A DNA stretch of 62,983 nt, filler included, from Craspedostauros australis (taxonomy: Eukaryota): NCBI GenBank assembly GCA_030167865.1. It is 18 parts of 18 records of this genome, joined end to end, with 100 filler letters (N's around TTAATTAATTAA, not from the genome) between each part and the next. Parts side by side here need not be neighbours in the genome. Positions count along the whole stretch, not along the records: positions 28,399 to 53,338 come from JALAGF010000645.1; 17 more parts are not named here. One strand, 5' to 3'. The translations under genes and the position numbers were made by a program. Shown in pieces: positions 1,941 through 55,132 of this stretch. Under the pieces are notes generated by a model. The model had not been told where the DNA came from. It saw nothing but the letters and a program-made list of their open reading frames with translations, and did not search any database. Position 1 is the stretch's first letter; every line of letters starts with the position of its first letter.

Positions 1941-1980
1941 AGGTTGAGGGAAGATACTGTGAATGTAACAGAATGTGACA

Positions 1981-3620: not shown

Positions 3621-3891
3621 CGAAACTTTCCTTACGGATATACTCACATGTACATCTCGACAGTGTCGAGCTGTGTGACATCATTTCTTCATCCTACCAA
3701 GACTACTAACTAACTCATAATAACACAAACAGAGATTAGCACAAAAGCATGACTCTACTCATCGTTACAGTAACACAACTTCTAACAAGGTCACTCCTCT
3801 CGAACTGCATTGCACGGTTATCCCGAAACCGGCAGCTCACGAGGCCTTTCCTACTGAATTGTGTCACCAACAGAGCACAAATCCTAACTAG

Positions 3892-4325
3892 ATGTGCAAA
3901 TTCATGGTGGATGGGACTGACTTTTGTTTTCTTGAACCTCATCCTTTTCAAAGAAATGGTACAGTCTCAAATACAAGGGAACTGATCTGCAGTACGAGAT
4001 GGCAATTTGCATCCAAGCTGGTGACATCGTTTGGTGCCATGGTCTGTTACCTTGTGGTCAGTGGCCGGACCAACAGATCTTCGACTGCTTGATGGTGGGA
4101 AACTTGCTGCTGATGAAATGGTGCATGCTGATCGAGGACACAGCAGTCCCTTGGTATGCAAGTCAAAGGACTATGATACCAATGCTGACAGGGATGGCAA
4201 GACTCATGTAAGAGCAAGACATGAAACCATTTACGTCTCTTCAAGAGATGGAAGATCTTACATGACTCATTTCAACATAATATGCAACTGCGCAAGACAG
4301 TATTGAAGGCAGTTGCCATAGCTGT
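3892..4325 (+). pseudogene. PIF/Harbinger-ISL2EU-type (DDE_Tnp_4-like) transposase relic
   Basis: Joined across frameshifts it reads VDGTDF…EPHPF / SKKWYSLKYKG..LQYEMAICIQAGDIVWCHG..PCGQWPD..IF / EMVHADRGH…VRARHETI / FKRWKIL. Confidence 0.8.
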
Positions 4326-4512
4326 CTGTTGATCAGGGCTTCTTCCAGCCTTGCCAAGTCAGGTAATAGAGAAAGAGACAGACTAAGTGATTAGAGCAGA
4401 GCAGAGAAATTGNNNNNNNNNNNNNNNNNNNNNNNNNNNNNNNNNNNNNNNNNNNNTTAATTAATTAANNNNNNNNNNNNNNNNNNNNNNNNNNNNNNNN
4501 NNNNNNNNNNNN

Positions 4513-4690
4513 AGGAGGGGACAAACGGTTCTTCCTTCACAATCACGTCACCCATGTCCTTGAGATACAAGTCCCCGTAGCCCTTGCGGTTGGCGCGGGC
4601 CAGGAACTTCGCACTCCAAGCTTTCCAGCTGGACCGCTTGCTGTCGAACATGATCATGTAACAATCAGTCTTACCTAGGAAGGATGTCAT
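4513..4690 (-). mobile_element. Copia gag N-terminus (partial)
   Basis: FDSKRSSWKAWSAKFLARANRKGY resembles the Copia gag start and lies about 80 nt inside an LTR end at 4771. Confidence 0.7.
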
Positions 4691-4770
4691 GGTGATGATG
4701 GTGATAGGATGTTTGTTGCTGTGCTGATGATGGTAGAAACGTAGGATTTCAATCGTAACGTTTCGAAACG

Positions 4771-5420
4771 TGTTGGAAATCTGGGGTTATTGTTAGTACT
4801 GTAATCTAATCCGCTGTTAGAAACTGTACCGTTTTAGAACTGTGAGCACAATCTCACTTTCTCTTCCGATTTCATCTTCATGGTAGGCATCTGTCACGGT
4901 GGCGACACGGGGCATCCTGTTGTCTCTTAGGTGCTTCCCCCTTCATTCATCATGCTCTGTTCTTGCTTCCTTGTCTTGGCATTGATGTTGCTTGTCTCTG
5001 CATCGTCGTAGCTGTCTACGCTTGCATGGTAGGGATCTGCAGTCTTGAGCACTTGCCTATCTCATGTCTCCGTTGTTGATCTCATGACACCGTCGCCTCA
5101 TGGTCGATGTCACCTTTGGTGATGTTCCAAACCTGCGGATGTTCTGATCATTTCTGATGTTCCAAACCTGTGGATGTTCTTGTCCGCAGGAGGGGCGCGT
5201 GCTGTCCTCTGAAGAGGGTGCGTCACTTGCCCATGGACTTGCTGTTCTGATCGACGTCGTTGTCTGGATGGTTGCCATGGTTGGCGCGGTATCGGGACCT
5301 CCTGATCCGCCATAGGTGTCGTCCTTGCATTACTGGAGGACAGGCTATCCTCCTCGCAGTAGTACAGGTGTCAATCATGTCCGTACCCTTAGTCATAGTC
5401 ATAATGACATGGAATATAAA
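4771..5420 (-). mobile_element. 5' LTR of the minus-strand Copia element (outer boundary uncertain)
   Basis: The plus strand starts TGTTGGAAATCTGGGGTTAT (element strand ends …TTCCAACA). The first ~80 nt are similar to 62557-62630, with homology starting at the same TGTTGG. Internal 35-nt-period duplication at 5121-5180. Confidence 0.65.
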
Positions 5421-5466
5421 GGTGTGACAAATAGTCTCCGAACATGTGACGAATAGTATTCAAAGC

Positions 5467-5788
5467 TGTGACGAATAATGTTGGGAGGTGCGGCAATCAC
5501 GGGTATTCTGACAAAGCCGTACCCTCGATTCCTCACAGGCAAGCGGCAATCGGCATCATCTTTCCGTCCTGCAAACGAATACAACCACGGGTTCCGCTGC
5601 AATGTCAGCACAACGATGGTACTATCAGTACGGCATCGTCGGCGGTGGAGAGAACGAGGAACCGCCACAGAGCGTTCATCATTGATGTGCCGCGCAGAAC
5701 GGATTCGCAAACCCATGTCTGTTGGAAGTAGCTACGGCATTGGTTGGGGAGAGCAGAGTGCTCTGTGGAGAGAGTTAGTGATTTTACA
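5467..5788 (+). mobile_element. Putative LTR of a second, plus-strand Copia-like element
   Basis: TG…CA bounded segment (TGTGACGAATA…TTTTACA) followed by a pyrimidine-rich leader and a degraded ORF. No second copy in the window confirms it. Confidence 0.35.
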
Positions 5789-6300
5789 GTGAATTTCTCA
5801 CTCTCCATTGCTGCGCCCACTGATCCGACTGCAATCCTCACATCTCAATCTCCTGACCGAGCAGCTCTCTACTTCTTAACTCCATGGTGAATGATGNCGT
5901 GATTGCGTCGTGCGGTCTCAAGCTGTATCTGAATGGACCATCTCCTGGGAGGTTTGCGTTTGTCCTCCACCCAGCGATTGCTCCGAGTTCATGAGGAGAT
6001 GCTGAGGTCCGTGTTCAACCAGCCTTGCTTTGTCCGCGGTTGCTGCCGTCTTGGTTGCCATCATGACAGCACAATTTTGGTGCAACACTCCGCTGACATA
6101 CGACTTCCCCAAAGTCAGTTGGGAGAATACGCCGCAGTGACCAGTGATCCAACATTCATCGACGACGCATCCATCCGTGAAGGTGACGTAGGTCGGCTCN
6201 NNNNNNNNNNNNNNNNNNNNNNNNNNNNNNNNNNNNNNNNNNNTTAATTAATTAANNNNNNNNNNNNNNNNNNNNNNNNNNNNNNNNNNNNNNNNNNNNG

Positions 6301-7644
6301 GCCCGGTGTGTTGCAGGTGGACATCTGACCGATCCATGCGGCGACACATCCTACGCTGGTGTCGTGAGCCTTCAGTCCCTTCGCATTGCACTACTCGCTG
6401 GTGAAGCCAATGGTCTACAGACCATGGTAGGCGACATCGGAAACGCGTACCTCGAGGCGTACACCAGAGAGAAGATATGCTTCATCGCAGGAGACGAATT
6501 CGGAGACAAGGCAGGCAACATGTTCACCATCGTCAAGGCGCTGTATGGCCTGCGCACCTCCGGAGCCAGATTCCATGAGGCACTGGCCGATACCTTGCGA
6601 GACATGGGATTCATGCAATGCCGAGCAGATCCTGACGTCTGGATGCGCGACGCCAACACTCATTGGGAATACGTATGTGTATACGTGGACGACCTGATGG
6701 CTGTGATGGTGGATCCCAGATCCTTCTTCGACCAGCTGACGGCAAAGTACGGCTACAAGCTGAAGGGAGTCGGCCCAATCTCATACCACTTGGGAGCTGA
6801 CTTCGGCCGAGACACTGACGGAACCATGCGCATCAGCGCTCGGTCATACATCAAAAGGATGTTGGTCAACTTCGAGACCATGTTTGATGGGCCACCCCAC
6901 AAACGGAGCAGTCCCCTCGACAAGGATGACAGTCCTGAACTCGACACTACACCAGAGCTCGGTGAGATCCAGAAGCGACAGTACATGTCTCTGATCGGAA
7001 CTCTCCAATGGTGTGTCACACTCGGACGATTCGACATCCATGTCGCGGTCATGACGCTCTCCCGATTTCGATCAGCACCACGAAAGGGACACCTGGATCG
7101 AGCAAAGCAAGTGTATGGGTACCTGCGAAAATACCCTGACGCATCCATCCGATTCCGTACTGGTATTCCCAAACACGAAGGTCACTACGAAACCCCGAAA
7201 CAGGACTGGGCATACACGGTGTACGGCAACGCCACAGAAGAACTCCCATCAGATGCACCTGCTCCACGCGGTAAGGCCATGAGGACAACCACCTTCGTGG
7301 ATGCGAACCTGCTGCACTGCAGAGTGTCCGGGAAGTCTGCCACTGGCGTACTCCACCTNGTCAATCAGACACCAATCGATTGGTTCTCGAAGAGACAGTC
7401 AACCGTGGAGACAGCAACCTACGGATCTGAGTTCGTGGCCGCACGNCTGGCTACCGAACAGATCATATCTCTACGCCTCACGCTCTGTGAGATGGGCATC
7501 CCCATCGACGGACCAAGCTGGATGTTTGGAGACAATCAAGGTGTTCTCTCATCATCAAATATCCCGAACAGCACTCTCACCAAGCGGCACAACGCGCTCG
7601 CCTACCACCGCGTTCGATCTGCCATCGCTGCAGGGATCATGTAC
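6301..7644 (+). mobile_element. Ty1/Copia (CoDi-like, a different lineage from 2081) RT-RNase H fragment, open throughout
   Basis: ARCVAGGHLT, GDIGNAYLEA, KALYGLRTSGARF, VYVDDL, GRFDI, FVDAN, SKRQSTVETATYGSEFVA, GDNQGV, KRHNALAYHRVR. Confidence 0.95.
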
Positions 7645-7744
7645 NNNNNNNNNNNNNNNNNNNNNNNNNNNNNNNNNNNNNNNNNNNNTTAATTAATTAA
7701 NNNNNNNNNNNNNNNNNNNNNNNNNNNNNNNNNNNNNNNNNNNN

Positions 7745-8788
7745 GACGTGAGGTATCTCCGATGCCGTGTACGAGGCGAGGATGAGATCGAATCCGCCCG
7801 TGCTGGTGGACTCGGCAGAGAGGCTGCTACTGAAGGTTGTGCGAATGGTGCCGCCGTTGTCTTGATTGTGACCGCTGCTGCTGCCGCTGTTTCTGGAATG
7901 CTCCAAAAGACGCTCCGAGCATTCTCTCATGCTGTGCGATGGTTCTATGCCATGGATCCAATCGATGGAACCGCCAAAGACCTCCAGGGCTGCCGCCGAT
8001 GCCGCGCCGCATCCAATTCCGAAATCCAGCACCCGCTGCGGTTTGCACTGCGTGAGGCTCTTGGCCTCTTGGAGCACCCTCTTGGCGATGGCGTAGTTGG
8101 AATCGAAGCGGAAGGTGAGGTCCGCGAGGGTTTGGTCCGGCCCATAATACACCGGCGGGAACTTGGCGGGATCAAGCTGGTGGTTGCTGGCACTGCTTTT
8201 GTCACCAGGATTGACCATGGCACGGCGGTCGCGTTCGCGGAAGACCGACAATCTGCGCTGCGTCTTGAGCACACGCTCGTAGTTGCGTCGCAGCTGGCGC
8301 TTTGTGCGCTGTCCGTCCTTGAGAATGTCAGCAATGGTGGATTCCAGATGTTCGGGCAGCTTGGGATCGGAGACCCTCCACGATGCTCTGGCTGACGGTC
8401 CGAGTAAGTTCCTCCACGTGTACGGAGCGGCAACGCCGGCGGAAGTTGTGCGCGTGGCGGACGCCTCTTCATCGGATACCAAGGCGTCACCTCCACCTGC
8501 ATCCGTCCCGCGCGGTGCCATCGTGCTCATGGAGTTGAGCGTGGATGTGTTCGATGGCAGCAACTCCGTTGTCATACGCATGGTCGTAGTCCGACGGCAA
8601 TGACGACCCATTGAGAAGGAGCGTCGGCAGCATCGATGATGATGATGATGATGGAGTCTCAGCCCCTCCCTTGCCACCGCTGCTTGCGCAGATCTCGCCG
8701 CGCATCGTCGCATCCATGGTATCGATCGTATCGTCCTGTCGACAGAATGAGCACTGAACGCGTTGCTGCCACTTCGAATAATCACCAT
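7745..8788 (-). CDS. Rsm22/METTL17-like mitochondrial small-subunit methyltransferase-fold protein (3' end cut by linker)
   Basis: YGPDQTLA…NYAIAKRVLQE…PQRVLDFGIGCGAA…IEPSHSM…FDLILASYTASEI; Arg/Ser-rich N-terminus resembling a transit peptide. Start codon uncertain. Confidence 0.75.
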
Positions 8789-18736: not shown

Positions 18737-20020
18737 GCACGCGTTCGCACTCAGCACGGAAAACTGCACGATCACACNGGTCGCGATCGGCTTCGCCAGA
18801 AACCAAAAAGTGTAGGACAACAGTTTTGGGGATGGGAGAGCACCCATCAGCAGCTTTGATGGTCGAAGATGCCATGCAAGCATCTTCCAAATCGCCAAGC
18901 CACCCATAGAAGATATGTTCATCATTAACACAGGAAAAAAATGTTGTGAGAGTTTTAAGTAATATTGTCTGCAAGAGGCGTTATCCTAAAATAACCGCCA
19001 AGGGGCCTTTTTCGGCACCGACAAAACGGCATGATGGGCTCATCATACGGGTGCGTACCTTCGAGAGCATGCACACCCAACCCATTCTGGATGCATCAGG
19101 ATGTCTTCAGGGAACGTGGTCACGCGCGGGGCGCACGACGAGGGGCTGCGAAGGTCGTAGGAATGAGATACGGATGCAAACAGTAGCAGCATCACGATCG
19201 GCGGTAGTTTTTCGAAATCGTTGGGCTTCAGGACGGGGACCATTTGGGGCATGGGATGCTGATATCAGTGGCGAAGCTTCATTGAAAGTCGATAGATACA
19301 GGATATACGGAGACAGTGTGGTGCGTAGCTTGCAGCAATACGACGGTCACGGGTGCTGAGGGGAGGTCAGGCTGGCACCATCCACGATTTGGGGACTCAC
19401 GAAAAAGCCGAATACATGCCGAAACGACGTTAAAAATAAAGTTGTGATAATTTTAACTTCGATGGTCACCACCGCTGATAGGAAGCTGTATACATGTACT
19501 ATTTGGTTTCAACTGGAAACGATGTGTTGTTGTGATATGGCATCATATCCAGTTGTTGGCATTGATTTTGGGCGTGTTCTGTGTGGGCGTGGTTGGCACA
19601 CCTCGTGGCACGAAACTCCACGGGTAGTGCTATCACGGAGGCATTCCATGGCACGTCGCGCGCAACATGAAAGAGTTGCATCATCGTTGTTGTTGCGATT
19701 TCGTATGGTGCTCTATTTGTCTTAGCTTCGGTACCATGCGATGCTCACATGGGTCGACGTTTCAGCAACGAATGCACTGTGCCATTGCGCTGTGTTGACG
19801 TGCTTTGGGGCGACATCCTGCTGTGCTGCATGGTGCCATCGTGCTCGTATCGTGTCCATGTGCTGCCATCGACNNNNNNNNNNNNNNNNNNNNNNNNNNN
19901 NNNNNNNNNNNNNNNNNTTAATTAATTAANNNNNNNNNNNNNNNNNNNNNNNNNNNNNNNNNNNNNNNNNNNNACGGTTATCGCCAACGGTTTCGGAACT
20001 CGTGAACGTACGTTGCAACA

Positions 20021-22909
20021 ATGACAAAACACATAAAATTTAAAAAGAAGCAGAGCGTTTACAAGACCAGCATGACGCCAGTGACAAAGAACGACGATGG
20101 TGACCCCTCCCGCAACAAACAGCGGAAGAAACAAGTGAATTTCGGAGGAGTTGAAATCTCGGGCACACCCAACGACGGTATCGCCAAAAAGCAGGCAACG
20201 TGGACGGAAGCGGAAGAGAAGGAAGTCAAGAGGAAGATGGAGATGAGCAACGCCAAGCCGTACCCGGAGTGCGTGGGAGCAGGAGACTCTATCAACACAG
20301 CATGGAAGGTGGTCCGCAACTACCTCGAATGCGAAAGAGGAGATCTAGAGACAATGGAGGAATGGACCGAGGTATTCAAGAAAGGGAAAGCCTGCCATTG
20401 GGACGCAGCCACGAACCAGAAGGTGCAACAGATGGAGGCTCGACTCCTGGCCACGAAAGCCGATATGTTCCCACCAGTATTCTGGGAAGAAGGGAACATC
20501 ATGGGTAGCATCATGACCAACCCTTGGATAGCCGCCCGAGTAGTCCACAAAGCCACATCGACCGAATCACCGGAGAAGCGACGCAGAATCGGCGGAGACA
20601 ACAAGCCGAAAACGACCGCGACGAAGACAACCAAAGCAGGAACCCAACAAACAAGCAAAACAAAGCAAAAGCAAAAGTTACAGCCCAAGCCTGACAAGGA
20701 TACACAGCGCCAACCAGTCAACACCACCGATAAGGAGAAGCAAGAGAGCACGGCCACAAACCCATACAAGAAAAACTCTCCATCGTTCGCGGAAGCCCTG
20801 AAATCAACCCCGATTACGGCAGGCAAAGATGGGCCAACGCTCCTCCCAGCCAGCCAGTTCTTCCTCAGCAAGCCAATGGTGAAAAAAGACCACAAGCGCA
20901 ACGTCAACGAGGCATTGGGACGGAAGTTCAGCACCTACTGCACCTTCCGTAGCCCCACATTGAAAGGGAAAGACAAATCCGTGGAGAAAGAAGTGACCGA
21001 GGCAATGGCCACCCTAATGGCGCACCTATTCACGCAAGACCCAGACCTGATCATACACCGATGGGACGGACAAGGCCAAGGATTGACAGCCGACAGCGAC
21101 AAAGTGACCTCGGTTTCCAAAATCAGGAACTACGTGAACAAGATGTACACAAAGGCGGGCAAGCAGACATGGTGCCGGTTCTACTTCTCACACAACAAGG
21201 AGTGGGCAGAACTGCAGGACGACGGACGCCTCCAGGACAACGACATCATACTTTCCAAGTGCACAGTACAAGCAAGAGAAGAAGTGCCAGTAGGATGGTT
21301 CTGCGCCAGCCACAGATCGACCAACTGCAATGACTTAACCGAGGCCATCAACAACCTGGAGGATATGGTGAAGGCAAAAGTCAAGGTGGGTATACGTATG
21401 CAGTCAATCAAACTGGACAAGTACGAAAAGGTGAAGAAAGAGGACCAGGTTTATGCAGCGCACATCCTTGCAAGTAAGGAAGATGCCATCAAGTGTGAAC
21501 AACTCATGGGGAAACTGTTTGCGGCAGGCAAGAACAGGATCCTAGGCAAGCGCCTCCGTTTCATATCCGACCTCACCGATGAACAGCGCCCAGCAACACA
21601 CGAGGACAGGCGCAACGCGATGCTGTACAAAAAGAAACAGAAAGAATTCCTGGAGAACACAAAGACCACCATCGTTTCCTTTATCCACGGCCTCGACTAC
21701 GTCGAACCCAAGAACAAGGTATCCCTGCGCAACGTCCTCTCCAAGCTCATGTCGACCTCAGGAGACAAGGACGGGTCAGCGCTGTTCCTGGCCGTTGAGA
21801 ACGGCAGGAATTGGGGCGACACAGTGTTTGTGTACAGCCAGGACGTTGCTGAGGAAGCCAGCATGATAATCCCACTGCTGCCCACGGTGGTGTACAAGTA
21901 CTGTGGCGGCAAAGCAGCCACCTGGTTCACAGATTACATCTGGGATGCCAACACAAGCTACGAGATGAATATGCACGGCGAGGTAATCAAAGCGGATTGG
22001 GAGCGGGACATTCTCAAGAAGCAAGTGGACAACGAATGGTACGCCAGCATGGGACTGCAACGCCCGGAAGAGGACAAAGAGGAACCTGAAAACAAACAGC
22101 CCAAGATGACCTTTGCGATCGACTTTGGGACCATACCCAAAACCATGGACGGGGACCACGGATCCGTGGGAGTGATGCGAAGGTGGCACAACTGCGACGA
22201 CGCGTCCCTGAGGTCCGCCATCACTTCAATGAAGTCGCAATGTCCAGAAGCAAAAAAAGAGACAATGAGAGTGGTGAGTGAAGCAATGAAAAAGCTAGAA
22301 GTGATCGACCCGGAGGCCAGGGCCCAATGGATGGAAGCTATTCTTGGTCCCGGTGCAGCAGGCACGGCCAAATCCGCGGCAGGTACAGCGGCATCCCAAC
22401 CCAACAGCGACGGAACCGATAACCCCCCGGAAGGAAAGGACGTCGACCGGGCCACCCAGACGCTTGAGGAACTGCAAGGCAGGAGCAAAGCCAAGGACTT
22501 TATGGAAACTGAGGACGACGGTTCAATGTCCGACGTGTCGATGGGATCAGGCCCTTCCTATCAGGTGCAGAACAACGTCACCTCCGCCGAAGTAGTCAAC
22601 CTGGTCGACCTTTCATCAGACGATGAATCAGGGGCCCCGTTCCCTCGACTGACCACCAGGAAAATGAGGACCAGAGCGCAAGCCAAAAAGAAAGAGAAGG
22701 AAGCGTGCATCTCCAAGGTAAAGGAGCGCCACCATAATGATGCAACCATGAAGCGCGCGGTCAGCCCGATGAAGAAAGCCAGACCCAAAACTGACATCCC
22801 AGCAACAGACGACAACAGGCCACTCGTGCGGCCAACAAAGCAGACAGAACTATCTGCACCCACAAACGGTTCAACCGCCAGCGACTCGAAGATCGCAGGC
22901 CAAGAATGA
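20021..22909 (+). CDS. LINE ORF1, 962 aa
   Basis: Long uninterrupted ORF before ORF2 with Lys/Thr-rich disordered ends and an ordered core (~aa 300-680). No CCHC knuckle seen. Confidence 0.9.
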   Translation: MTKHIKFKKKQSVYKTSMTPVTKNDDGDPSRNKQRKKQVNFGGVEISGTPNDGIAKKQATWTEAEEKEVKRKMEMSNAKPYPECVGAGDSINTAWKVVRNYLECERGDLETMEEWTEVFKKGKACHWDAATNQKVQQMEARLLATKADMFPPVFWEEGNIMGSIMTNPWIAARVVHKATSTESPEKRRRIGGDNKPKTTATKTTKAGTQQTSKTKQKQKLQPKPDKDTQRQPVNTTDKEKQESTATNPYKKNSPSFAEALKSTPITAGKDGPTLLPASQFFLSKPMVKKDHKRNVNEALGRKFSTYCTFRSPTLKGKDKSVEKEVTEAMATLMAHLFTQDPDLIIHRWDGQGQGLTADSDKVTSVSKIRNYVNKMYTKAGKQTWCRFYFSHNKEWAELQDDGRLQDNDIILSKCTVQAREEVPVGWFCASHRSTNCNDLTEAINNLEDMVKAKVKVGIRMQSIKLDKYEKVKKEDQVYAAHILASKEDAIKCEQLMGKLFAAGKNRILGKRLRFISDLTDEQRPATHEDRRNAMLYKKKQKEFLENTKTTIVSFIHGLDYVEPKNKVSLRNVLSKLMSTSGDKDGSALFLAVENGRNWGDTVFVYSQDVAEEASMIIPLLPTVVYKYCGGKAATWFTDYIWDANTSYEMNMHGEVIKADWERDILKKQVDNEWYASMGLQRPEEDKEEPENKQPKMTFAIDFGTIPKTMDGDHGSVGVMRRWHNCDDASLRSAITSMKSQCPEAKKETMRVVSEAMKKLEVIDPEARAQWMEAILGPGAAGTAKSAAGTAASQPNSDGTDNPPEGKDVDRATQTLEELQGRSKAKDFMETEDDGSMSDVSMGSGPSYQVQNNVTSAEVVNLVDLSSDDESGAPFPRLTTRKMRTRAQAKKKEKEACISKVKERHHNDATMKRAVSPMKKARPKTDIPATDDNRPLVRPTKQTELSAPTNGSTASDSKIAGQE

Positions 22910-25900
22910 GGGTACCCTCAGGACAAACCAAGGGTGGTGAACCAAGACCGGAATCCACCCAACTGGTTAGAGGGAGGACGAATGGGGTAGAAACCCCACT
23001 AAGCGAAGGGAGGCAGCAATCAAAGGAAGAAGGCCAACAAGAAATTCAGACAAGGGAGGACGAACGGGAAGGCACGGAGCCGAGTAGGGAGACCTTGCAC
23101 ACCGAGGAACGAACGGAGACCGGCGTACGTGAGAACCAACGACCGTTACAGAGGGTTAAGATACCTAACAGCCAAAAAAATAAAAAGAGAGCGACAACGT
23201 TTCAGCCCGCCCAAAAAGGCCACGACAGGCGAACAAACGGGACAAGACAAGAGACACGCGAAACAGACGACAGCAACACTCAGGCCCCAACGGAAAAGGA
23301 CCCAACATCAACAAACACAACACAGACCATGCCCGAAGACGGTATTTTTGGCAACACAATGAGGCAACCGCGAGCAGGTACAATCAGGCTCGCGTTCCAA
23401 AACATTGGGAGGTTACCAGTGGAACCATGGAAACGCAAGAACGGCCAAATTGGAGAAGAAGTAAAACGAAGACACATTCACGTGCTCATGATGGCGGAAA
23501 TTGGACTCAACTGGAAGTCGATGAAGACCGGGGATTCATGGTCCAGAAGAGCAGTGAAATGGGGCGGGCACACCAAGGCTAGCGCGGCCTACAACCGCAA
23601 CAGCCCACATGCAAACAAAGTGCAGTTCGGAGGCACAGGAATTGCAACGTCAAAATATCTCGCCAAGCGAGTGGTCGACGAAGGGGAGGACCCGGACAAC
23701 CTGGGACGATGGGTGTGGCAGAGGATAGAAGGGCGCAAGGGCAAGCACATACGAGTGGTGGCAGCCTATCGAGCATGCACATCAAGCCGACCAACTTCCA
23801 CTTGGGCCCAGCAGCGTACCTATCTCCTTGGGCGAGGGGACACAAGGGAACCCAGGGAGGCAATGCTGCTCGACCTCGCGCAGAGTATACGGGAGTGGAA
23901 GCAGGACGGCGATAGTGTGGTAGTCGGCATAGACGCAAACCAAGATGTCAACGAAGGCAGATGCGCCGAAGTGTTCAGCGAGCTGGGCATGCGTGAGGCA
24001 ATCACGGATATGCACCCCAACCTCCAAAGACAAGCAACCCAGCACCGCAACAGGAACCATGTCCCGATCGACGGCATTTACGTGACGAGCGACGTCGAAC
24101 TTATGGAGGCCGGCTACTTGGGCTTTGGAGAAGCTATTGACTCCGACCACAGGATGCTGTGGGCCGACATCAAAGAGGCAAGCACCATCGGCATCTTGAA
24201 CCCGCTGGTGGGAGTGGAGCCACGACGTCTACGAATGGTGGACCAAACGGCGGTGGGCAAGTACCAGGAAGCGCTGTGGTGCAAGGCGCAACAAAGAGGG
24301 TACCACTGGAGAATTGAGGAGCTCGAGAAGGCCGTCCGTACCCAGGGTAGGGTCACCACAGAGCTGGCCAAGGAGTACAACGCCATTGATGCGGGGATGG
24401 ACCAGCTCCGAGTAGAAGCAGAGGCGGAATGCAGGAAGCTGAGAATGGGGGCACTAGAATGGTCACCGACACTGAAGCGGCTCAGAGACGAGGTCAGGCT
24501 TTGGACATCGGTATGGAAAAAACAGAACAACATTCACATCAGCTCGTCCCTCATAAAGCGGCTGGCCAAACGACTGCGGATCCACAGGCCACGCCAGCTA
24601 TGCCCGGAGCAAGTAAGAGAGAAGATGGATGCCGCCAGGCAGGCCTATGCAGCCGCAAAACCAACCGCATCTCAAATGCGGGACGATTTCATGCTACACA
24701 AAGGAGTGGAAGAATCAGCAAGGTGGGGTACGGCACTGGAGAACACGGCGAGCCATATTCGCAGAATGAGGGAACGCCAGATTCGAGACAACCGGCGTCT
24801 CAAGGCGTGCCTCAAGCCCAAGCAAACGCTAGCCACAAAGGTCACAGTTACTGGGGACGACGGGGAGTTGACAGTGTGCGATACGAAGCACGCCATCGAA
24901 AAGGCGTGCATTGTGGAGAACAAGAAACGCTTCCTCCAAACATCGTGTACCCCATTCATGACCGGCGAACTGCGGCGTCGCTTTGGTTTCCTCGCGGACA
25001 CCGCAGACGCCAACCAAGTATGCGAAGGGAAGTGGAAGCCCACGCAACTGACGGACGAGTACCCACGTATGCTGCTGACGCAAGTAGGATCGACCCCTTC
25101 AGCGACGCCCAACACCTCGTTTACAGTGCAAGACCACGTTGATGGATGGGCAAAACAGAAGGAACGAACATCGTCCGAACCGTCGGCCCCCCACTTTGGT
25201 CACTTCAAGGCGGCGGCTCAGCACGAAGGGCTTGCGGCGATCGACTGTCGGCTGCGAAGGATTCCGTATGAGACGGGGTTCTCCCCCACATCGTGGAAGG
25301 TGATGACCGACTTCCAGATCCTCAAGAAAGCTGGAGTGTTCGATGTCGCGAAGATGCGAACCATCCAGCTGTTCCACCCCGCCTTCAACATGAATAACAA
25401 GAAACTGGGAAGAGATCTGATGCAGACAGCTGAAAGCAACGGCCGAATGGCAACAGAACAGTTTGGGAGCCGTAAAGGCCACAAGGCGTCAACAGCCGCT
25501 CTGTGTAAGAGAGTGGTGGTCGACGTCATGAGGCAAAAGCGGCAGAATGGGGCCATATGCTCCAACGACGCAAAGTCATGCTATGACAGGGTGGTTCACA
25601 GTGTGGCATCGATGGCCATGGTGCATGCAGGCGGAAGGCGATCGGCAGTGAAGTCCATGTTTGGCACTCTGCAACAGGCAGAACATCACATACGCACAGC
25701 ATACGGGGTGTCCTCCAGGACCTACGGAAACACGGGATGGGTGCCAATGCAGGGCTTAGCCCAGGGCAACGGCTGTGGGCCAGCGGCTTGGGCCGCCATC
25801 AGTTCACCTATGTTCGAGGCCATGCGCGCCCAGCGTCATGGGGCGAACTTCGTTTCGGTTCTCAGCAACAAGAAAGTGAACTTGGTGGGTCTTAGCTTCG

Positions 25901-28298
25901 TTGACGACGCAGACCTGGTGGTATCAAGACCGGGTGAGTCCTTCGAAACGGTGACGCAAAGAACACAAAAGGCACTGGAGGATTGGGAAGGGGTACTACG
26001 GTCTACGGGAGGGGCCTTAGTTCCGGCCAAAAGCTTCTGGTGGGGCTTGTCATTTGACTACGTAGCCGGGCAATGGAGGATGAAGACAGCAAGGGCAGCG
26101 CCGGCACAAGTGCAGGTACGCGACGCACACGGTGTCAGCAGGGAGCTGAGGCGACTCGATCCCGGCGAGTCTGAACAAACCTTGGGAGTGTTTATGAACA
26201 TGACAGGCACGTCGGAGGCCCAAGTCCGTTACCTACGGCGGAAGTCCGAGGAATTCGCAGACAGGGTGGTCTCGGGTGGGCTGCAGCATGACCTCGTATG
26301 GATGGCGATCACCACGCGGATAACCAAGACACTGGAATACCCTATGGAGGCTGTGACGCTCAATCAACGTCAGTGGGACTTCGTGTACGCACCAATATGG
26401 TCCAAAGCCCTGCCGCGCGGTGGTGTGGCCCGAACATTTCCGCGTGCGGTACTGTTTGGGCCCAGGGCGAATGGGGGTATTGGCATGCGAAATCCCATGG
26501 TGTGGCAGCTGGCTACTCAGATCCAAGCCATGGCACATGAGGTCAGCACAAGGTCGATAACGGGAAGAATGATTGAGCTATCGATAGAGCAAGCAAAGAT
26601 GGAAACCGCAGGCGGGGGATCTCTGTTCAAGCAAAGTTTTGCCGCCTGCGGTCACTACGTCACAGCGTCGTGGGTGACGCAAGTGTGGGCGAACGCACAG
26701 AAGTTTGGCGTGTCGATTGAAGAGACGGGGCCATCTGTCCGGAAGCAGCGAGTGGGAGACGTATTTCTCTTGGACAGTTGGCGCTGCCAGGGGTACAACA
26801 ACAAGCAAAAAGGGATGCTGAACGAGTGTCGTTTGTTACTAAAAGTCAGGACACTTTCGGATATGGTGACGGCGGATGGCACCAGAGTCATGAGGATCGC
26901 GTTCCTGGGTAAGAACGGAGGAGTCACAGCGTCAGCAGGACACCCACGCATGCCAGGGAGGCTAACGCGGCGACACTGGCTATTGTGGCAAGAGTGGATA
27001 GAAGGCTTCACGGAGGACCGCCACCTGAGGCTCCGGCGGCGTATGCAAGCTTGGATCCACGATGACCACGGCTGGGTGTGGTGGCGGGATCCTGACGACG
27101 AGTACACGGCATGGCGACGGGTGGGTCAGAGTTTCCAAGTATGGCGAAGTCCCCCGGGCAGGCGGGGGCGACGATCGGAGTTTGAGGCTACGGCCACGGC
27201 GATACGGAATCTTCCGGCAAGGGCTCGGCGCACCTCTCCACTGAACGAGGGTCATCGTGCGGTGTGGCTCGAGGCATTGGAGCGGCCACGTGTGGGTGAA
27301 ACGTTGCCCTCAACGCCCAGGAGGGTAGCGTTCGATTCAGGGCGGTGTTGGGAGCGTGGCCATATATCAGGCGACGCAACGGACTCGGAATTGCGCGCAG
27401 CGGTGCGAAGAGGCGATGTGTTGGCCGTCAGTGATGGGTCGTTCAAAATGGGCTTTGGTACGTCAGCGTACGTCCTGAGCGTGTTGGACTCCGGCGTGCA
27501 GAGCACAGGGTGCAACGTGGTTCCAGGGGGGTCAGCAGTGCAGTCGGCATACCGCAGTGAGTTGGCCGGTGTGGCTGGGATACTACGAGAACTGCTGGAA
27601 CTAGAGAAGGGCGGGAGTCTGGGGCAGGGCCCGGTGGTCGTTGGTCTCGACGGGATGAAGGCCATGGAGAACTGTCGTGACGGGGTGGCGCAGGTAAACC
27701 AGCCGTCCTATGACATGCTCGGTCACATCAAGGCTATGCGTGAGCGGTTGTCAGTGGAGGTAAGGTTCCGCTGGGTCCGGGGGCACCAAGATGATGGACC
27801 AGGGCGGTTGGACCGGTGGGCGCTCCTCAACGTCTACTGCGACGGAGAGGCCAAGAGATACTGGGAGGCTTCGGTGGGCAAGCCGAAGCCTGTGTGGCGT
27901 GGTGAAGGGTCCTTTCAATGGAGTCTGAGGATACAGGACACCAAGTCTTCGTGGGCAGCGTCGGGCATCCATGACGACATCGTGGGTGCTACGGTAGAAG
28001 GTTATTGGGGCAGGAAGCTAGGAGTGGTCAGGCAAGCCCGCGGGTCCACGGCCTGTCTAGGGCGCCGCAAGGCGCAAGGCAAGGCGTCTTGGCGACAACG
28101 CGTCTTTGTGTCCAAGATGGCCACCGGGTTCATCGGGGTGGGAGCAAAACTCAAACAGTACGGGGTCGAGGAGCAATGTCCATGGTGTGGGCAATCCGAG
28201 ACGGCGGTGCACGTGGTTCAGTGTGCGGAGTCAGGACAGGCGTGGGAGGCCTGCTTCCAGCAGTACGTGGAGGAGTTGGAGCTCATCGGAACGAGCGG
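22906..28298 (+). CDS. LINE ORF2: AP endonuclease, reverse transcriptase, RNase H, CCHC zinc knuckle (3' end cut)
   Basis: APE: FQNIG, MAEIGLNW, GIDANQD, PIDGIY, SDHR. RT: RTIQL, EQFGSR, NDAKSCYDRV, QGNGCGP, FVDDADL. RNase H: VSDGS, YRSEL, GLDG, WVRGHQD, NVYCD. Knuckle: CPWC-x7-H-x3-C. Confidence 0.95.
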
Positions 28299-28398
28299 NN
28301 NNNNNNNNNNNNNNNNNNNNNNNNNNNNNNNNNNNNNNNNNNTTAATTAATTAANNNNNNNNNNNNNNNNNNNNNNNNNNNNNNNNNNNNNNNNNNNN

Positions 28399-29050
28399 GA
28401 CTACTCGGGCGGCTATCCAAGGGTTGGTCATGATGCTACCCATGATGTTCCCTTCTTCCCAGAATACTGGTGGGAACATATCGGCTTTCGTGGCCAGGAG
28501 TCGAGCCTCCATCTGTTGCACCTTCTGGTTCGTGGCTGCGTCCCAATGGCAGGCTTTCCCTTTCTTGAATACCTCGGTCCATTCCTCCATTGTCTCTAGA
28601 TCTCCTCTTTCGCATTCGAGGTAGTTGCGGACCACCTTCCATGCTGTGTTGATAGAGTCTCCTGCTCCCACGCACTCCGGGTACGGCTTGGCGTTGCTCA
28701 TCTCCATCTTCCTCTTGACTTCCTTCTCTTCCGCTTCCGTCCACGTTGCCTGCTTTTTGGCGATACCGTCGTTGGGTGTGCCCGAGATTTCAACTCCTCC
28801 GAAATTCACTTGTTTCTTCCGCTGTTTGTTGCGGGAGGGGTCACCATCGTCGTTCTTTGTCACTGGCGTCATGCTGGTCTTGTAAACGCTCTGCTTCTTT
28901 TTAAATTTTATGTGTTTTGTCATTGTTGCAACGTACGTTCACGAGTTCCGAAACCGTTGGCGATAACCGTAGTTTCAGTACTGACTCTTACGTGAATTCG
29001 AACCTACTGGGTCTACGTACGCCTTTTTAATTCAGCGATTCCAGAAGAGT
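28399..29050 (-). mobile_element. 5' end of LINE insertion A (127-nt leader plus start of ORF1)
   Basis: 28399-28970 is the reverse complement of 19974-20545, and the copy extends 80 nt further 5'. It shares 652 nt with 53439-54090. Confidence 0.95.
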
Positions 29051-29098
29051 GGATCCATCCATTATAACAGATCAATTCACGCGCGCTTCGACTGAGCC

Positions 29099-30430
29099 AT
29101 GACATCAAGTGCAACCGTCACTGACCAAATCAAGGACGCTCGCGCACTGTGGCTTTCGGAAGATGCGGATATCGCCGAGGTGGAGAGACTGTACCGATCG
29201 GCGTTGCATCTGCCGCAAGAGGACGCGGAATCGACGCAAGATACGCAGCCCTTGGACGACAACCATGCCAATCATGATGCTGTTGCCGCTGCTGATGGCA
29301 ACGGGCCGCAACAAGGATCCGAGCAAAAGAGGATGGACGAGTCTGCCAACGAAGCGAACGATGACGAGCCGATCCGGAAGGCCAAAGAGCAACTGTCGCT
29401 GATTCTCTGCCAGTCGGCAAGAGCAGACAAAGCCAACGCCTTGCTGTCGCAGATGAGCTACGAATGTCGTCTTGCGTCGGTTGTTTTGGACTACCCCATG
29501 CCCGCAACAGCGACAGCGACATTGGCATTGAATCAGAGCCATCTCAATCATAACGATGATGATGCCGATGATGTTTGTTGCCCATGCCGCGTCTACGATG
29601 ATTTCCTGACAGCGCAAGAACTTCAGATCCTCAAGAATGTATTTGAGAGCCCATCCTGCGATTACTGGACGGAACACGCATACGCCGTCGAACCGCCGTC
29701 GCCGTATTTCTCGTACCTGATTCCGTTCCAACCCGGAAATACACGCAGTATTCTCGAGAGGCTAATTCAAAAGATCTATCAGCAGCTGCTGCCTCACTTC
29801 CCCAACCTCGCCAAGGCAACATGCGTCGAGATGTGGGCACACAATCGACCGCACGCATCTGGGCATCAATTGCATTTTGACAGCGACAATGAGGGTATTG
29901 GGGGGATACGGAACCCCATCATCTCAACGATACTGTACATCACGGGCAACTGCGGCGGGCCTTCATTGGTGACGGATCAGAAGCTGATCCACAAACGGTT
30001 GGCACAGAAGGGATGGATGAGTCACGCGAAGGAGCGTCGGCTGGTTGCCTTCGATGGGAAGGTGCTGCATGGTGTGATTCCTGGGAAGGGATCATCACCA
30101 TCATTGTCGTCGCCACCATCATCACCATTGTCGAGCTCTCCATCTTCTTCTTCCTCCTCAGGCAAGCGCCGGGTGACGTTGATGCTTGCATTTTGGAAGA
30201 AGATCGAAGTGCGGGAAGGAGATGGGCCTGGAGCTGCAAGGATGTTCCCAACCGACTCGTCGTGGGCAAAGCAATTGCGTCAGGACGCCACACAAATCCA
30301 GGACAGTGGCAGCATCCCGAGGCGTACGAGGCCGTTGTCCGTTGCGCCGATCTACGAGACCTTGGATGGGCAGCCTTGGACTCGACAGATGGGCATGCCG
30401 CAGTACGATCAAGTCTTTCAGGGGTTTTAG
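29099..30430 (+). CDS. Putative 2OG-Fe(II) oxygenase-superfamily protein, 443 aa
   Basis: HxD motif (HQLHFDSD), STILY, distal His (LHGVIPG) and KRRVTLMLAFW match the double-stranded beta-helix dioxygenase pattern. Single exon. Confidence 0.7.
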   Translation: MTSSATVTDQIKDARALWLSEDADIAEVERLYRSALHLPQEDAESTQDTQPLDDNHANHDAVAAADGNGPQQGSEQKRMDESANEANDDEPIRKAKEQLSLILCQSARADKANALLSQMSYECRLASVVLDYPMPATATATLALNQSHLNHNDDDADDVCCPCRVYDDFLTAQELQILKNVFESPSCDYWTEHAYAVEPPSPYFSYLIPFQPGNTRSILERLIQKIYQQLLPHFPNLAKATCVEMWAHNRPHASGHQLHFDSDNEGIGGIRNPIISTILYITGNCGGPSLVTDQKLIHKRLAQKGWMSHAKERRLVAFDGKVLHGVIPGKGSSPSLSSPPSSPLSSSPSSSSSSGKRRVTLMLAFWKKIEVREGDGPGAARMFPTDSSWAKQLRQDATQIQDSGSIPRRTRPLSVAPIYETLDGQPWTRQMGMPQYDQVFQGF

Positions 30431-32434: not shown

Positions 32435-33096
32435 CCGTGCATGGTGGGTGTTGGTTGGAGGCGGTTCTCCTCCTTTTCTCTCTTTTCGCCGTGTTGGCAT
32501 CGCGCGTGACACCAATCCACGCGAAAATCGGAACAGATCGTCCTCGTTGCCATCTCCGCGATACCCCTCGCCGTACAATACACGGGCACGGACAGACACA
32601 ACGCCAAAAATCTGGTTGGGGAGTTTCTCATGTTTTTCTTGGGTGTTCCCGTTTCCCAACGTTCAGTTGTCGTGGAAGCGTCATGGGCGTGTCGCATTGC
32701 GACACAATCCGAAGCAATGGAAAAATGGAGAAACAAGTCATCGTTCTTCTTTGTGTGTCTGTCATTCATGCGTGCGGCGCAGTCCAACCACCTTCCGTTT
32801 GACACAAATGACTGCATGAGAATCGCAAGGATTCGATGGATGCGAAGATCCGCGGAGAGATGGCGACGGCGAAGCCGCGGGTGGTTGGTGTTTGGAAACA
32901 CGACTTCGCCTCTGCTGCTCCAACCGAGACCGACAGGTGGAACGGCGGAAGCAACAACTCTCGTGCTCTTGTTGGTGCAAGCAGGCAGAGGCGGATGAGA
33001 ACAGGAAACCACACTCGCAGCCACACAGACACATTCACAATCCTAATCACAGACCTGATTCGGACACACCATCAACACCCGAAGAAGACATCCATC

Positions 33097-41700: not shown

Positions 41701-42160
41701 ATTGTCGTCATTCACAATCTTGCGGATCGTGTGATCCTTGATGAAGTTGTAGAAGATGTCTGAAGCAAGGTATAATATAATATTTGCAAGGAAGTTGCAA
41801 AGTAATTGCAATGTTGTTGTTAAGTGGAGTGAAGTTGTGACAATGATGGTGATGATGGAAAGCACGGTGAGATGGGTTGACGCGTCATCGTAGAGTACGT
41901 GTCTGTGTATGTTGTGCCACATACTCCACTCCACTATTATCGGAGACCTTCCATTCATTGCTCGATCAGCATCCATCCATCCATCCATCCATCCACACAC
42001 AGTGCGTCTGATTGCGCTCACCTGTGTCGTTCTCATAGTTGGGATATTGCCCCAGATGCGCTCCATCCGATGCGTTATTGTCGCCACCTCTGTTCCTGCT
42101 GCTGCTGTTGCCGTTGCCACCAATGCCTCCATCTGTGTTGAACGATTGCTGCGACGCCAT
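38741..42160 (-). CDS. MCM7: DNA replication licensing factor MCM7, 959 aa; exons 42160-42022, 41759-40046, 39767-38741
   Basis: C4 zinc finger, [61 protein letters not shown] spanning the intron, [19 protein letters not shown]. Confidence 0.95.
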
Positions 42161-42381
42161 GGTCAACTCCCGAAGTACACGGCCACCCTTCCTCGATGCT
42201 ACGAGCACGCGATGGATCAAGTGCCGACAACTGACTTCTGTGTTCGATGAACTCCTGTTGTTCTCAGTGCACTATGCTCTGACGCCCGCTTCCATCCTCG
42301 GAGCCTTGCGTTCGATCTCTTCTCTCGTTTCGCCTTCCCACATCGATTCGCCCATCATTGTCGGTTGCTTGTTCTGCCTTG

Positions 42382-52044: not shown

Positions 52045-53438
52045 GACAGCATATGGTGCTCCACATGAATGCCAAGAATACATGCATTGAGCATTACGGA
52101 AGACATCACAATACTAAACCAGTACCATTGATTAGTACCACTATTGGCTCATTGCTCGCCACAACACCGCGGAAATCCACGCCGTCGACATCCTGAAGTG
52201 CCTTTTCACAGTGTGGTAACTCAACAACAAAAACGGAAGGCAGGCAGGCAGACACAATTTGCAGTAATGTTCCTGCTTTTCCTTTTGCTGCGTCGTCACA
52301 TGGCTTACGATGAATTGTTCCAGTTTACGACATATAATATGTTTCGTGGCATGTTGGGTGCTGCATTGTATGGCAACAGAAAAATTGATGACAGTGGCGT
52401 ACTTGTATGCACCACATCATTGCATGCGTGCATGCATGCGTGCGAGGATTCAGGAGTTCTCGTCATGCTGCAGCGCATTTGTTTACGCCATGACGCTGTC
52501 ATCAGAAGACTGAAGACGAGCCATCAAGAGATCGGTCATGCGGTTGCCGCCCTGAAGCTTCGCAGACTTCACGATGCTCGACACGTCCTTGTCCCAGATC
52601 TCCTCGTAAGACTAGTTAGAGTTCATGGCCCCAAGAGTATGGTATCGGGATACTTTTGTGACTCAAATCACAAACGGGAAACAAACCATTCCCGTGCCCG
52701 TTTCCTGCGAATCTCTTCGTCTCACGGTATCAATCAATATATATGCTGGAGGCGCATCTCAACCAAGACTGCTACCTGTCACCGCCAACTCTTGTGCAGG
52801 AAGGCCAAGAACCTCTTTCTGCATGCATTCACAGATCCTTTGTTATGTCATCATGAGTGAAGCATGCCATGGAATGCAAACATGTGCCTGTGCCAACATC
52901 TGTTTTCTCACCCAAGATCCATTGTGTCACATGAAGCTCAAACCGAGATCTCCCAACACTTCTGATCTTGAATTGAGGGCTCAGATGTTCACAGACGCGT
53001 TTGCTGACGATGTGTTGCTCGAAACAACATGTCAAACTGGCATAATTCTTCATGCAGACATCTCTGAAGAATGTGGGACTTGCAACCAGCGAACAAGCNT
53101 GTTCATCGCCGCTTGTCACACTGTATGTTCGCCCCCATTCTGTCACATGTGCAAAGGTGAACTTGCTAGCNACNTATTGTACGAAACAGCGCGTCAAATT
53201 GGCTCATCTGATCATCTGAACATCACAAAGTTGGATGGAACTTGCATCGCGATAAGCGCGTACATTACCACTATTCACCCTGCTTATTCTCATCCCATTT
53301 CATTCAGATGCTCATCAAGTAGTCATAAAACGCACAAANNNNNNNNNNNNNNNNNNNNNNNNNNNNNNNNNNNNNNNNNNNNTTAATTAATTAANNNNNN
53401 NNNNNNNNNNNNNNNNNNNNNNNNNNNNNNNNNNNNNN

Positions 53439-54090
53439 GACTACTCGGGCGGCTATCCAAGGGTTGGTCATGATGCTACCCATGATGTTCCCTTCTTCCC
53501 AGAATACTGGTGGGAACATATCGGCTTTCGTGGCCAGGAGTCGAGCCTCCATCTGTTGCACCTTCTGGTTCGTGGCTGCGTCCCAATGGCAGGCTTTCCC
53601 TTTCTTGAATACCTCGGTCCATTCCTCCATTGTCTCTAGATCTCCTCTTTCGCATTCGAGGTAGTTGCGGACCACCTTCCATGCTGTGTTGATAGAGTCT
53701 CCTGCTCCCACGCACTCCGGGTACGGCTTGGCGTTGCTCATCTCCATCTTCCTCTTGACTTCCTTCTCTTCCGCTTCCGTCCACGTTGCCTGCTTTTTGG
53801 CGATACCGTCGTTGGGTGTGCCCGAGATTTCAACTCCTCCGAAATTCACTTGTTTCTTCCGCTGTTTGTTGCGGGAGGGGTCACCATCGTCGTTCTTTGT
53901 CACTGGCGTCATGCTGGTCTTGTAAACGCTCTGCTTCTTTTTAAATTTTATGTGTTTTGTCATTGTTGCAACGTACGTTCACGAGTTCCGAAACCGTTGG
54001 CGATAACCGTAGTTTCAGTACTGACTCTTACGTGAATTCAAACCTACTGGGTCTACGTACGCCTTTTTAATTCAGCGATTCCAGAAGAGT
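53439..54090 (-). mobile_element. 5' end of LINE insertion B
   Basis: Matches 28399-29050; the only difference I see is 54040 A versus 29000 G. The flank beyond 54090 differs. Confidence 0.95.
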
Positions 54091-54352
54091 AATCCATCAA
54101 ACAACACATTGGATACGAACATATACCCAACTACCGCCACCGTTTCAATACAGACATCGAATTCCCACTCGCATTCATCACACAGTGCATGGTACTCATA
54201 TTAAACCAATACAAGCCATTGAAGACACCACGATCGAGATCTCCGCCAAAGGTGTAATTGCTCAGACAACACACTTCCTCAACAGCCAATCCAATGCCAA
54301 TCGTTCAACGTCCAACGTCCAACGTCCACCAACCATCGACCATCCTCCCAAA

Positions 54353-55132
54353 ATGCCGAATGTTACGAACCAACAACTCATTATTGCTGCCGGGGCAGGT
54401 GACTTGTCGGTGTTGAAGGAATGGAAGAAGCAGAACAAGACGCAGAATGAAGGAGTTGATGTCAACGAGGTTACAGACTGGGTCGGTTCCACTCCCCTTC
54501 ATTACGCATGCTACGAAGGCCGCCTGGAGTGTGTGAAGTACCTCATCGACTCATGTGGGGCGAACATCAACTGCAAAGACAACGATGGTGACACTCCCCT
54601 TCATTACACATGCGAAAAAGGCCAGCTGGAGTGTGTGAAGTACCTCATCGACTCATGTGGGGCGAACATCAACTGCAAAGACAACGATGGTGACACTCCC
54701 CTTCATTACGCATGCCACAACGGCCACCTGGAGTGTGTGAAGTACCTCATCGAATCATGTGAGGCGAACATCAACTGCAAAGAAGACGGTGGTTGGACTC
54801 CCCTTCATTGCGCATGCGTTTACGGCCACCTGGAGTGTGTGGAGTACCTCATTGAATCATGTGAGGCGAACATCAACTGCAAAGACAACAATGGTTGGAC
54901 TCCCCTTCATAAGGCATGCGCCAACGGCCACTTGGAGTGTATGGAGTCCCTCATCAGAGGACTTTCGCCTTCAGCTCACCCACAACTGCAACAATTGCAG
55001 CAACACTTACAACAAAACGAACAAGCAAATGAACAACCACAAGAACAGTTGAGACAGCAGTTGAAGCGGAAGAAGGAAGAGAATGAACACAAACACAGCA
55101 GCCACAAGAGGACCAACATCAGCATTGAATAA
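54353..55132 (+). CDS. Ankyrin-repeat protein, probably the truncated 5' part of an ankyrin-BTB gene
   Basis: Five 34-aa TPLH…GHLECVKYLI repeats followed by a Gln-rich coil. Confidence 0.8.
   Translation: MPNVTNQQLIIAAGAGDLSVLKEWKKQNKTQNEGVDVNEVTDWVGSTPLHYACYEGRLECVKYLIDSCGANINCKDNDGDTPLHYTCEKGQLECVKYLIDSCGANINCKDNDGDTPLHYACHNGHLECVKYLIESCEANINCKEDGGWTPLHCACVYGHLECVEYLIESCEANINCKDNNGWTPLHKACANGHLECMESLIRGLSPSAHPQLQQLQQHLQQNEQANEQPQEQLRQQLKRKKEENEHKHSSHKRTNISIE
54491..54955 (+). repeat. 102-nt coding tandem repeat (ankyrin units), about 4.5 copies
   Basis: ACTCCCCTTCAT starts at 54491, 54593, 54695, 54797 and 54899; units are highly similar at DNA level. Confidence 0.92.

Follow-up and report, generated by a model that had tools for sequence, protein, structure and literature searches.

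In the 62,983-nucleotide (nt) stretch of the Craspedostauros australis genome analysed here (assembly GCA_030167865.1; hereafter 'the window', along which all positions are counted), two copies of a long interspersed nuclear element (LINE) end on exactly the same element base, each 1–2 nt from the heptamer ATCCATC and each facing away from a plus-strand gene that begins shortly beyond it. The arrangement at these two junctions is real, non-random and partly explained: the heptamer belongs to a motif enriched upstream of genes in the window, and insertion directed by that motif is our leading explanation for its position, at a likelihood that we would place a little short of even.

Working outwards from the element, the two 5' ends (both on the minus strand and each 652 nt long; Table 1) are identical at 651 of 652 positions. 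For 572 nt (28399–28970 and 53439–54010) both match perfectly, in reverse complement, a separate 'body' contig of the LINE at 19974–20545; by reading, the remaining 80 nt hold the single difference, a g at 29000 against an a at 54040. The identity of the two copies then stops on one element base, 29050 in copy 1 and 54090 in copy 2, where the junctions read ...ccagaagagt/ggATCCATCcatt (29050/29051) and ...ccagaagagt/aATCCATCaaac (54090/54091) or, taken further into the flanks, ...gaagagt/ggATCCATCcattataac and ...gaagagt/aATCCATCaaacaacac. ATCCATC lies 2 nt past the first junction and 1 nt past the second; beyond it the flanks, which are single-copy DNA and otherwise unrelated, differ at once, and a repeat comparison within the window found no further repeat common to the two. 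Copy 1 has 2.5 ATCC units at its junction, and at copy 2 positions 54090–54097, the last base of the LINE included, read TAATCCAT. The plus-strand ATG from which each 5' end faces away follows a further 48 nt (copy 1, 29099) or 262 nt (copy 2, 54353) on. The initial annotation had claimed two insertions with different flanks that share an end base, the same 7-mer 1–2 nt from both, and an orientation away from plus-strand genes at these distances; the junction reads and the 651/652 identity bear it out on all three counts.

Two unique flanks establish two insertion sites with complete 5' ends, and to that extent the earlier description of a young LINE inserted twice with an intact 5' end stands; the full length of each copy is not thereby shown. 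The window is a chain of contigs with 17 linkers (positions 1981–61769), each consisting of two 44-N runs 12 nt apart, and two of these were read out in full (Table 1). Every piece of the LINE abuts a linker: both 5' pieces begin exactly at one, at the same element position (652), whilst the body is a separate contig without flanks, in the opposite orientation to the adjoining 5' piece. This body contig is probably a collapsed repeat, which would in part account for the near-identity of the LINE pieces, and the order and orientation of neighbouring contigs (the LINE body next to a reversed 5' piece, for instance) cannot be trusted.

A comparison with relatives of the element, a family that is widespread in plankton metagenomes, indicates that the shared end base is meaningful. 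A protein search gave 138 relatives at E ≤ 1e-3 among 5,517 candidates (the best at 39% identity over the full query region), and a metagenome scan turned up 364 related stretches, with 80 loci retained from them. With element ends defined by near-identical contigs that have different flanks, complete relatives measure 8.6–9.4 kb and provide 20 full-length 5' junctions (16 collected, plus four by eye); 5'-truncated copies are also present. Their 5' termini all begin with A (ACAATT, ACTTTATTG, ACTTTTCT and ACTTT[T/C]CTGG, the last resembling the window element's own start, ACTCTTCTGG) and adjoin unrelated flanks, with 5' untranslated regions (UTRs) of 91–139 nt and a first open reading frame (ORF1) that starts MTK, as in the window element, whose 5' UTR is 127 nt. 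Since the relatives start at a homologous ACT or ACA, with the MTK of ORF1 91–139 nt further on, base 29050/54090 is, on homology, the family's true 5' terminus and the start of the element RNA (ACTCTTCTGG...); the same homologous starts rule out the candidate view of the 7-mer as a variable 5' extension of the element. An exact 24-mer of the element's 5' end had no match in the metagenome contigs, and no relatives were found in viral contigs. Genome contigs yielded eight distant loci (L081–L088; one contig of 215 kb) and no added junctions; all of these records are labelled as bacterial metagenome-assembled genomes, and the contigs are probably eukaryotic ones in the wrong bins.

The 7-mer at the junctions is probably host DNA. 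Taken together, ATCCATC and ATCCACG occur at 8 of 5,116 upstream, gene-sense positions versus 29 of 97,874 elsewhere, an enrichment of 5.3-fold (Fisher p = 3.9e-4) in a test built on 18 ORFs of at least 150 amino acids (aa) chosen by rule, with the LINE, both junction motifs and an (ATCC)n run at 41971 left out. The controls gave 3.0-fold for the upstream antisense strand (five occurrences; p = 0.035), 1.1-fold downstream of ORFs and 0.6-fold inside them, and six other words of the form ATCCA[CT]N gave 1 versus 47. ATCCACG is among the two most recurrent 7-mers of the 300-nt upstream intervals (6/19), and the motif precedes five of seven Pfam-supported genes (cyclophilin, MCM7, Swi3, NYN and an Ank gene at 47311), the pair adjoining the LINE being left out and the start exon of one of the seven having been read by eye. 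The gene-sense instances, six of ATCCACG and three of ATCCATC, lie 7–168 nt upstream of starts (7945–52267 of the window; junction copies uncounted; Table 1), and a later exon of the cyclophilin gene matches Pro_isomerase at 53 bits. No name for ATCCA[C/T][G/C] was found in text searches for it, where primer-type listings alone came up, or in the literature on diatom core promoters, including the accessible portion of PMC3599244. ATCCATC and ATCCACG are, then, two forms of a strand-specific host motif found shortly upstream of many start codons. Because the junction copies start 46 and 261 nt before their ATGs, in the right orientation, and because the motif is enriched upstream, they are most simply seen as host promoter-side motifs; the earlier view of the 7-mer as a feature near gene starts is supported for the two-form motif and more weakly for ATCCATC by itself. 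The (ATCC)n run, of five or more units (41971–41993), falls within the MCM7 ORF of the opposite strand.

How often such an arrangement would arise by chance was estimated in several ways. A 7-mer shared at offsets 0–3 was found in 478 of 400,000 random pairs of window sites (3,360 of 400,000 at offsets 0–10), and in 692 of 40,000 trials the first 30 nt aligned locally no worse than in the observed case. On a crude ORF model of the 24-kb contig, 4.5% of non-ORF bases lie within 49 nt, and 20.1% within 263 nt, upstream of an ATG; on that model, a pair of insertions placed at random in non-coding DNA would both face away from a gene at these distances about 1% of the time. For two promoter-side insertions that both fall within four offsets of the motif, simple arithmetic from the enrichment counts gives (4 × 8/5,116) squared, or ~4e-5. 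Both LINE ends lie, in gene sense, 1–2 nt upstream of a motif that is itself concentrated upstream of ORFs, in the same relative orientation, these being two cases only. It is because the two hits fall at 1–2 nt, in one orientation, at ~4e-5 even inside promoter-side DNA, that we place motif-directed integration ahead of its rivals.

On this reading, the window shows the 5' junctions of two independent insertions of an endonuclease-type LINE in a gene-dense eukaryote. The site would be recognised by the element's endonuclease or some other DNA-binding part; alternatively, the 3' end of the RNA, or a microsatellite-like tail, could pair with it (the tails of relatives include (AATG)n, at L061), or a 3' TAATCCAT block could do so, and the resemblance seen at junction 2 would then be accounted for as well. 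Nicks would be so placed that target-primed reverse transcription forms the 5' junction 1–2 bp upstream of the motif, leaving the element pointing away from the gene; with motif, 5' UTR and coding region all left intact, the insertion could be tolerable to the host gene. In its fullest form the proposal is of a LINE 'homing' to the promoter-side ATCCATC of protein-coding genes, 1–2 bp upstream and in a fixed divergent orientation, such that the gene would keep its core promoter; a 'safe haven' strategy like that of Ty3 or TRE5-A, here for genes transcribed by RNA polymerase (Pol) II, and possibly guided by pairing of a 3' RNA motif or tail (UAAUCCAU...). This fuller version we put forward tentatively, as a possibility.

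Several observations weigh against directed insertion. The window element offers two junctions only. The motif was found post hoc, in one window, with ORFs of at least 150 aa standing in for annotated genes; ATCCATC alone is weakly enriched (3 versus 10; p = 0.028, a count that includes the cyclophilin start, entered by hand), and the copy beside the ankyrin gene, starting 261 nt before its ATG, lies beyond the 7–168 nt spanned by the other nine. At the relatives' 20 full-length 5' junctions, GATGGAT (ATCCATC as read on the element's strand) is absent from the last 15 nt in every case and present with one mismatch in one, and the same target word and orientation are seen at 2/2 junctions in the window; the relatives are, however, distant (ORF2 identity at most 46%) and their contigs possibly chimeric. 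No target-site duplication adjoins both ends in 16 relatives' loci, the best candidate being one 8-mer 30 nt from the junction, a lack that chimeric contigs may perhaps explain. Six of the relatives' loci carry an upstream ORF of 150 aa or longer, and in each of them the longest is on the strand of the LINE, i.e. not head-to-head; five of these upstream ORFs were scanned and gave no Pfam match. Lastly, junction 2 reads TAATCCAT, a 3' motif conserved across the family, suggesting that the 7-mer has another origin. Of the initial annotation's proposal, a retrotransposon that targets a CCAT-like motif near transcription starts, what the window supports is the adjacency, the orientation and the enrichment of the motif, from two junctions; the relatives support neither the target word nor the head-to-head arrangement.

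It may be that no sequence recognition is involved at all, and that insertions are biased towards, or survive in, the short open regions upstream of genes in a compact genome, with adjacency to the motif a coincidence helped by its abundance. Non-ORF sequence makes up some 40% of the 24-kb contig, and 20% of it is at most 263 nt upstream of an ATG; the motif occurs commonly ahead of genes; and relatives likewise lie within tens of nt of flanking ORFs. What this account struggles to accommodate is two landings 1–2 nt from the motif, both on one side of it and in one orientation, given the estimate for promoter-side DNA above; we think it unlikely.

The 7-mer could instead be tied to the element's own 3'-terminal RNA motif (TAATC[N]AT), either as a short inverted copy of the 3' end, made by twin or dual priming in which the second nick likewise uses the RNA as template and the non-inverted part is very short, or as a genomic primer that had paired with that motif. 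The 3' ends of the relatives comprise a hairpin, TTAAAG[T/C]C...GGCA, then a second one with a sequence that differs from family to family, the block TAATC[N]AT[T]G[N]G and a tail of short repeats (e.g. L012:10915–11004), with covariation seen by eye. TAAT is invariant in all 25 distinct 3' ends, with C as the next base in 24 of them, and the tails are (TTA)n, (TTTA)n, (TA)n, (AATG)n (L061) or (AATTG)n. It is to this block that the reading at 54090–54097 corresponds: over 10 nt, AGTAATCCAT matches the 3' ends of two relative families exactly, and TAATCNAT occurs only four times in the window, the other three sites being, by eye, without the family's 3' hairpin. Moreover, two of the 16 relatives' 5' junctions (L013:157, p ~0.0025; L016:1452, p ~0.0055) adjoin an inverted, imperfect 17–19-nt copy of the element's own 3' end that shares AC or ACT with the 5' end; to judge by their sequence, these two look like products of twin or dual priming. 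Precedent exists in the L1 insertions that by such priming carry inverted poly(A) at their 5' end (Meyer et al. 2010; PMC2837659, accessible portion), a likeness that holds for the two relatives and possibly for junction 2. In the window, however, the piece would be only 7–8 nt long and coincides with a promoter-side motif of the host, correctly oriented for the downstream gene at both sites; instead of TAATC, copy 1 has TGGATCCAT; and the flanks diverge right after the 7-mer. The unanchored tests are weak (p ~0.024 for copy 2, ~0.18 for copy 1), those over 100 nt are not significant, and the other 14 of the 16 relatives' junctions gave p above 0.01 in the test for an inverted 3' copy. Both versions, copied filler and paired primer, require AATCCATC in the element's own 3' end, which lies outside the window; were that end to finish ...AGTAATCCATC, an element-derived or RNA-paired 7-mer would be favoured. 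As things stand, we consider such an origin improbable.

Two side observations concern the same regions. On the minus strand, the sense-strand flank of copy 2 (54091–54140; GGCGGTAGTTGGG...GTATCCAATGTGTTGTTT) is collinear with the 3' end of the relative L053; the idea that it represents an old same-sense 3' remnant was dropped, since a 28-nt test gave p ~0.005 but a 100-nt test p ~0.11. In L013, a full-length element starts (2376 onward) directly after 2,220 nt of the 5' part of another copy (157–2376), an arrangement that reflects either nesting or an assembly chimera.

A third alternative to motif-directed integration gives the element an active role: its 5' end would act as a promoter directed outward (antisense) and drive both host genes, much as the 5' UTR of human L1 is able to drive a neighbouring gene outward. 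Insertion 48 nt from the ATG at 29099 would have displaced the DNA formerly further upstream, as such a role would suppose, but the motif and a TATAA (29063–29067) remain between the LINE and that ATG, so host gene 1 may keep its own core promoter, and we hold it doubtful, indeed improbable, that the LINE drives these genes. Pure coincidence, found because it was looked for, or an assembly artefact is very unlikely: there are two junctions only and all LINE pieces sit at contig ends, both cut at element position 652, but no false join can come from an overlap of 7 nt, both flanks are single-copy, and the chance estimates for the shared word are 0.12% or lower.

By its coding content, the element is classed as an endonuclease-type retrotransposon without long terminal repeats (non-LTR), i.e. 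a LINE. ORF1 (20021–22909; 962 aa) is open throughout, and ORF2 runs from the ATG at 22906 open to the linker at 28298 (1,797 aa), the stop of the one and the start of the other overlapping as ATGA (22906–22909), which suggests termination-reinitiation. No Pfam family matched ORF1; its middle (aa ~232–660) is common to 29 relatives' loci, at 23–31% identity in the 25 best listed. ORF2 matches RVT_1 (33.1 bits, above the cutoff of 29.6; E = 5.7e-8) and gives no Pfam match of its own for an apurinic/apyrimidinic (AP)-like endonuclease. The latter domain is recognised by homology: ORF2 aligns end to end with relatives, and among 12 of these scanned, nine match Exo_endo_phos at the N-terminus (E ≤ 0.05; seven above cutoff), four match RNase_H weakly (one above cutoff) and two match zf-RVT weakly. 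A profile search of the PDB with the ORF2 alignment gave no hits. Read from these matches, the domain set consists of an AP-like endonuclease, a reverse transcriptase, an RNase H-like region, a zinc knuckle and a large, family-specific ORF1. A defined 5' end together with 5'-truncated copies and no terminal repeats, as expected of a LINE, is seen in the shared termini of the relatives and in the window's two ends. The element is young and probably active. Common to the relatives is a 5' UTR block, CAGTA[C/G]N5-6CTACG, some 30–55 nt before the ORF1 ATG (in the window, minus strand of 28951–28976: GTCAGTACTGAAACTACGG), possibly a hairpin or else an internal promoter element.

At the other end, tblastn with the relatives' C-termini matched only 27600–28300 on the plus strand (34 high-scoring segment pairs), and the relatives continue past the point at which ORF2 is cut; the last 0.7–1 kb of the element is therefore missing from the window. 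Consistent with this, TAATCNATNNG has no match in the window, and nothing resembling a LINE was seen by eye at the right end of the 25-kb contig (to 53338).

As for the host genes, the protein of host gene 1 has no Pfam match, and its nearest protein-atlas clusters are mostly diatom. The ankyrin repeats of host gene 2 are encoded by five tandem 102-nt units (54383–54994), 60–100% identical to the reference copy.

Table 1. Positions of the LINE pieces, junction motifs, adjoining genes and further motif instances in the window.
Feature	Position	Strand	Remarks
LINE 5' end, copy 1	28399–29050	-	Element nt 652–1; 127-nt 5' UTR, then ORF1 start, ATG 28923 running down to the linker
LINE 5' end, copy 2	53439–54090	-	Element nt 652–1; one difference from copy 1 (54040 a)
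ATCCATC beside copy 1	29053–29059	+	Within ATCCATCCAT; starts 46 nt before ATG 29099, with 39 nt between motif and ATG
ATCCATC beside copy 2	54092–54098	+	1 nt from junction; starts 261 nt before ATG 54353
Host gene 1	29099–30430	+	443-aa ORF; Fe2OG-dioxygenase-like by protein-atlas clusters (lead only)
Host gene 2	54353–55132	+	259-aa ankyrin-repeat protein; Ank_2, E = 4e-86
ATCCATC	33090–33096	+	7 nt before ATG read as exon 1 of the cyclophilin gene
ATCCATC	32835–32841	-	24 nt before ORF start at 32817
ATCCATC	42211–42217	-	85 nt before MCM7 ATG at 42132
ATCCACG			40 nt before ORF start at 35258
ATCCACG			44 nt before ORF start at 8502
ATCCACG			92 nt before ORF start at 52267
ATCCACG			142 nt before start of the ankyrin gene at 47311
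ATCCACG			167 nt before start of the NYN gene
ATCCACG			168 nt before start of the Swi3 gene
LINE body contig	19974–28298	+	Element nt 81–8405; cut by linkers at both ends
Scaffold linker	28299–28398		N44-TTAATTAATTAA-N44; equal spacing at 19874–19973 and 53339–53438

Site-specific LINEs are known for ribosomal, small nuclear and transfer RNA (tRNA) genes, for telomeres and for microsatellites; to our knowledge, no search for one having been made, no LINE is known that targets a promoter element of ordinary protein-coding genes. At its two junctions, the window element resembles the sequence-specific groups (R1, TRAS/SART, the Tx1 group and microsatellite families; PMC4640811, in the portion accessible) in the same target word, the fixed orientation and 5' junctions that vary by 1–2 nt, and its relatives carry microsatellite-like 3' tails that would be able to pair with a target. 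It differs in that those groups target, as far as is known, multicopy RNA genes, telomeric repeats or microsatellites, whereas the flanks here are single-copy promoter regions, the shared word is a dispersed 7-mer and the sites are two in number. The short, apparently fixed distance to a putative promoter element, the intact gene and the compact genome recall Ty3 and Dictyostelium TRE5-A at Pol III genes, and Tf1 at Pol II promoters. Ty3 and Tf1 are, however, LTR elements that use an integrase, and TRE5-A is a LINE at tRNA genes, whereas the window element is a LINE at protein-coding genes; we know of no tethering factor for it. With the 'stringent-type' LINEs (CR1/L2 and the eel element UnaL2), whose 3' ends bear a conserved stem-loop and a short tandem-repeat tail, the relatives, whose 3' ends have the hairpins, the TAAT(C) block and the repeat tail, share this general layout; the window family differs from these in its domain set (an RNase H-like region, a zf-RVT-like knuckle and a 960-aa ORF1 that has no Pfam match) and in the 3' motif itself. 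In diatoms, the accessible portion of PMC2806351 mentions only an RTE-like family in one species, and that of PMC5029228 holds nothing specific on diatom LINEs.

Two further things emerge: a strand-specific motif without a name so far, ATCCA[C/T][G/C], ahead of most recognisable genes of the window, and a LINE family, new among the endonuclease-type elements and widespread in plankton metagenomes, with an invariant 3' TAAT(C) block. Promoter-motif targeting would possibly be a new form of site-specific LINE behaviour. If it holds true genome-wide, it would provide a natural system for promoter-targeted integration by target-primed reverse transcription, and would reveal how, at a density of about one gene per 2.4 kb, a 9-kb retrotransposon manages to persist.

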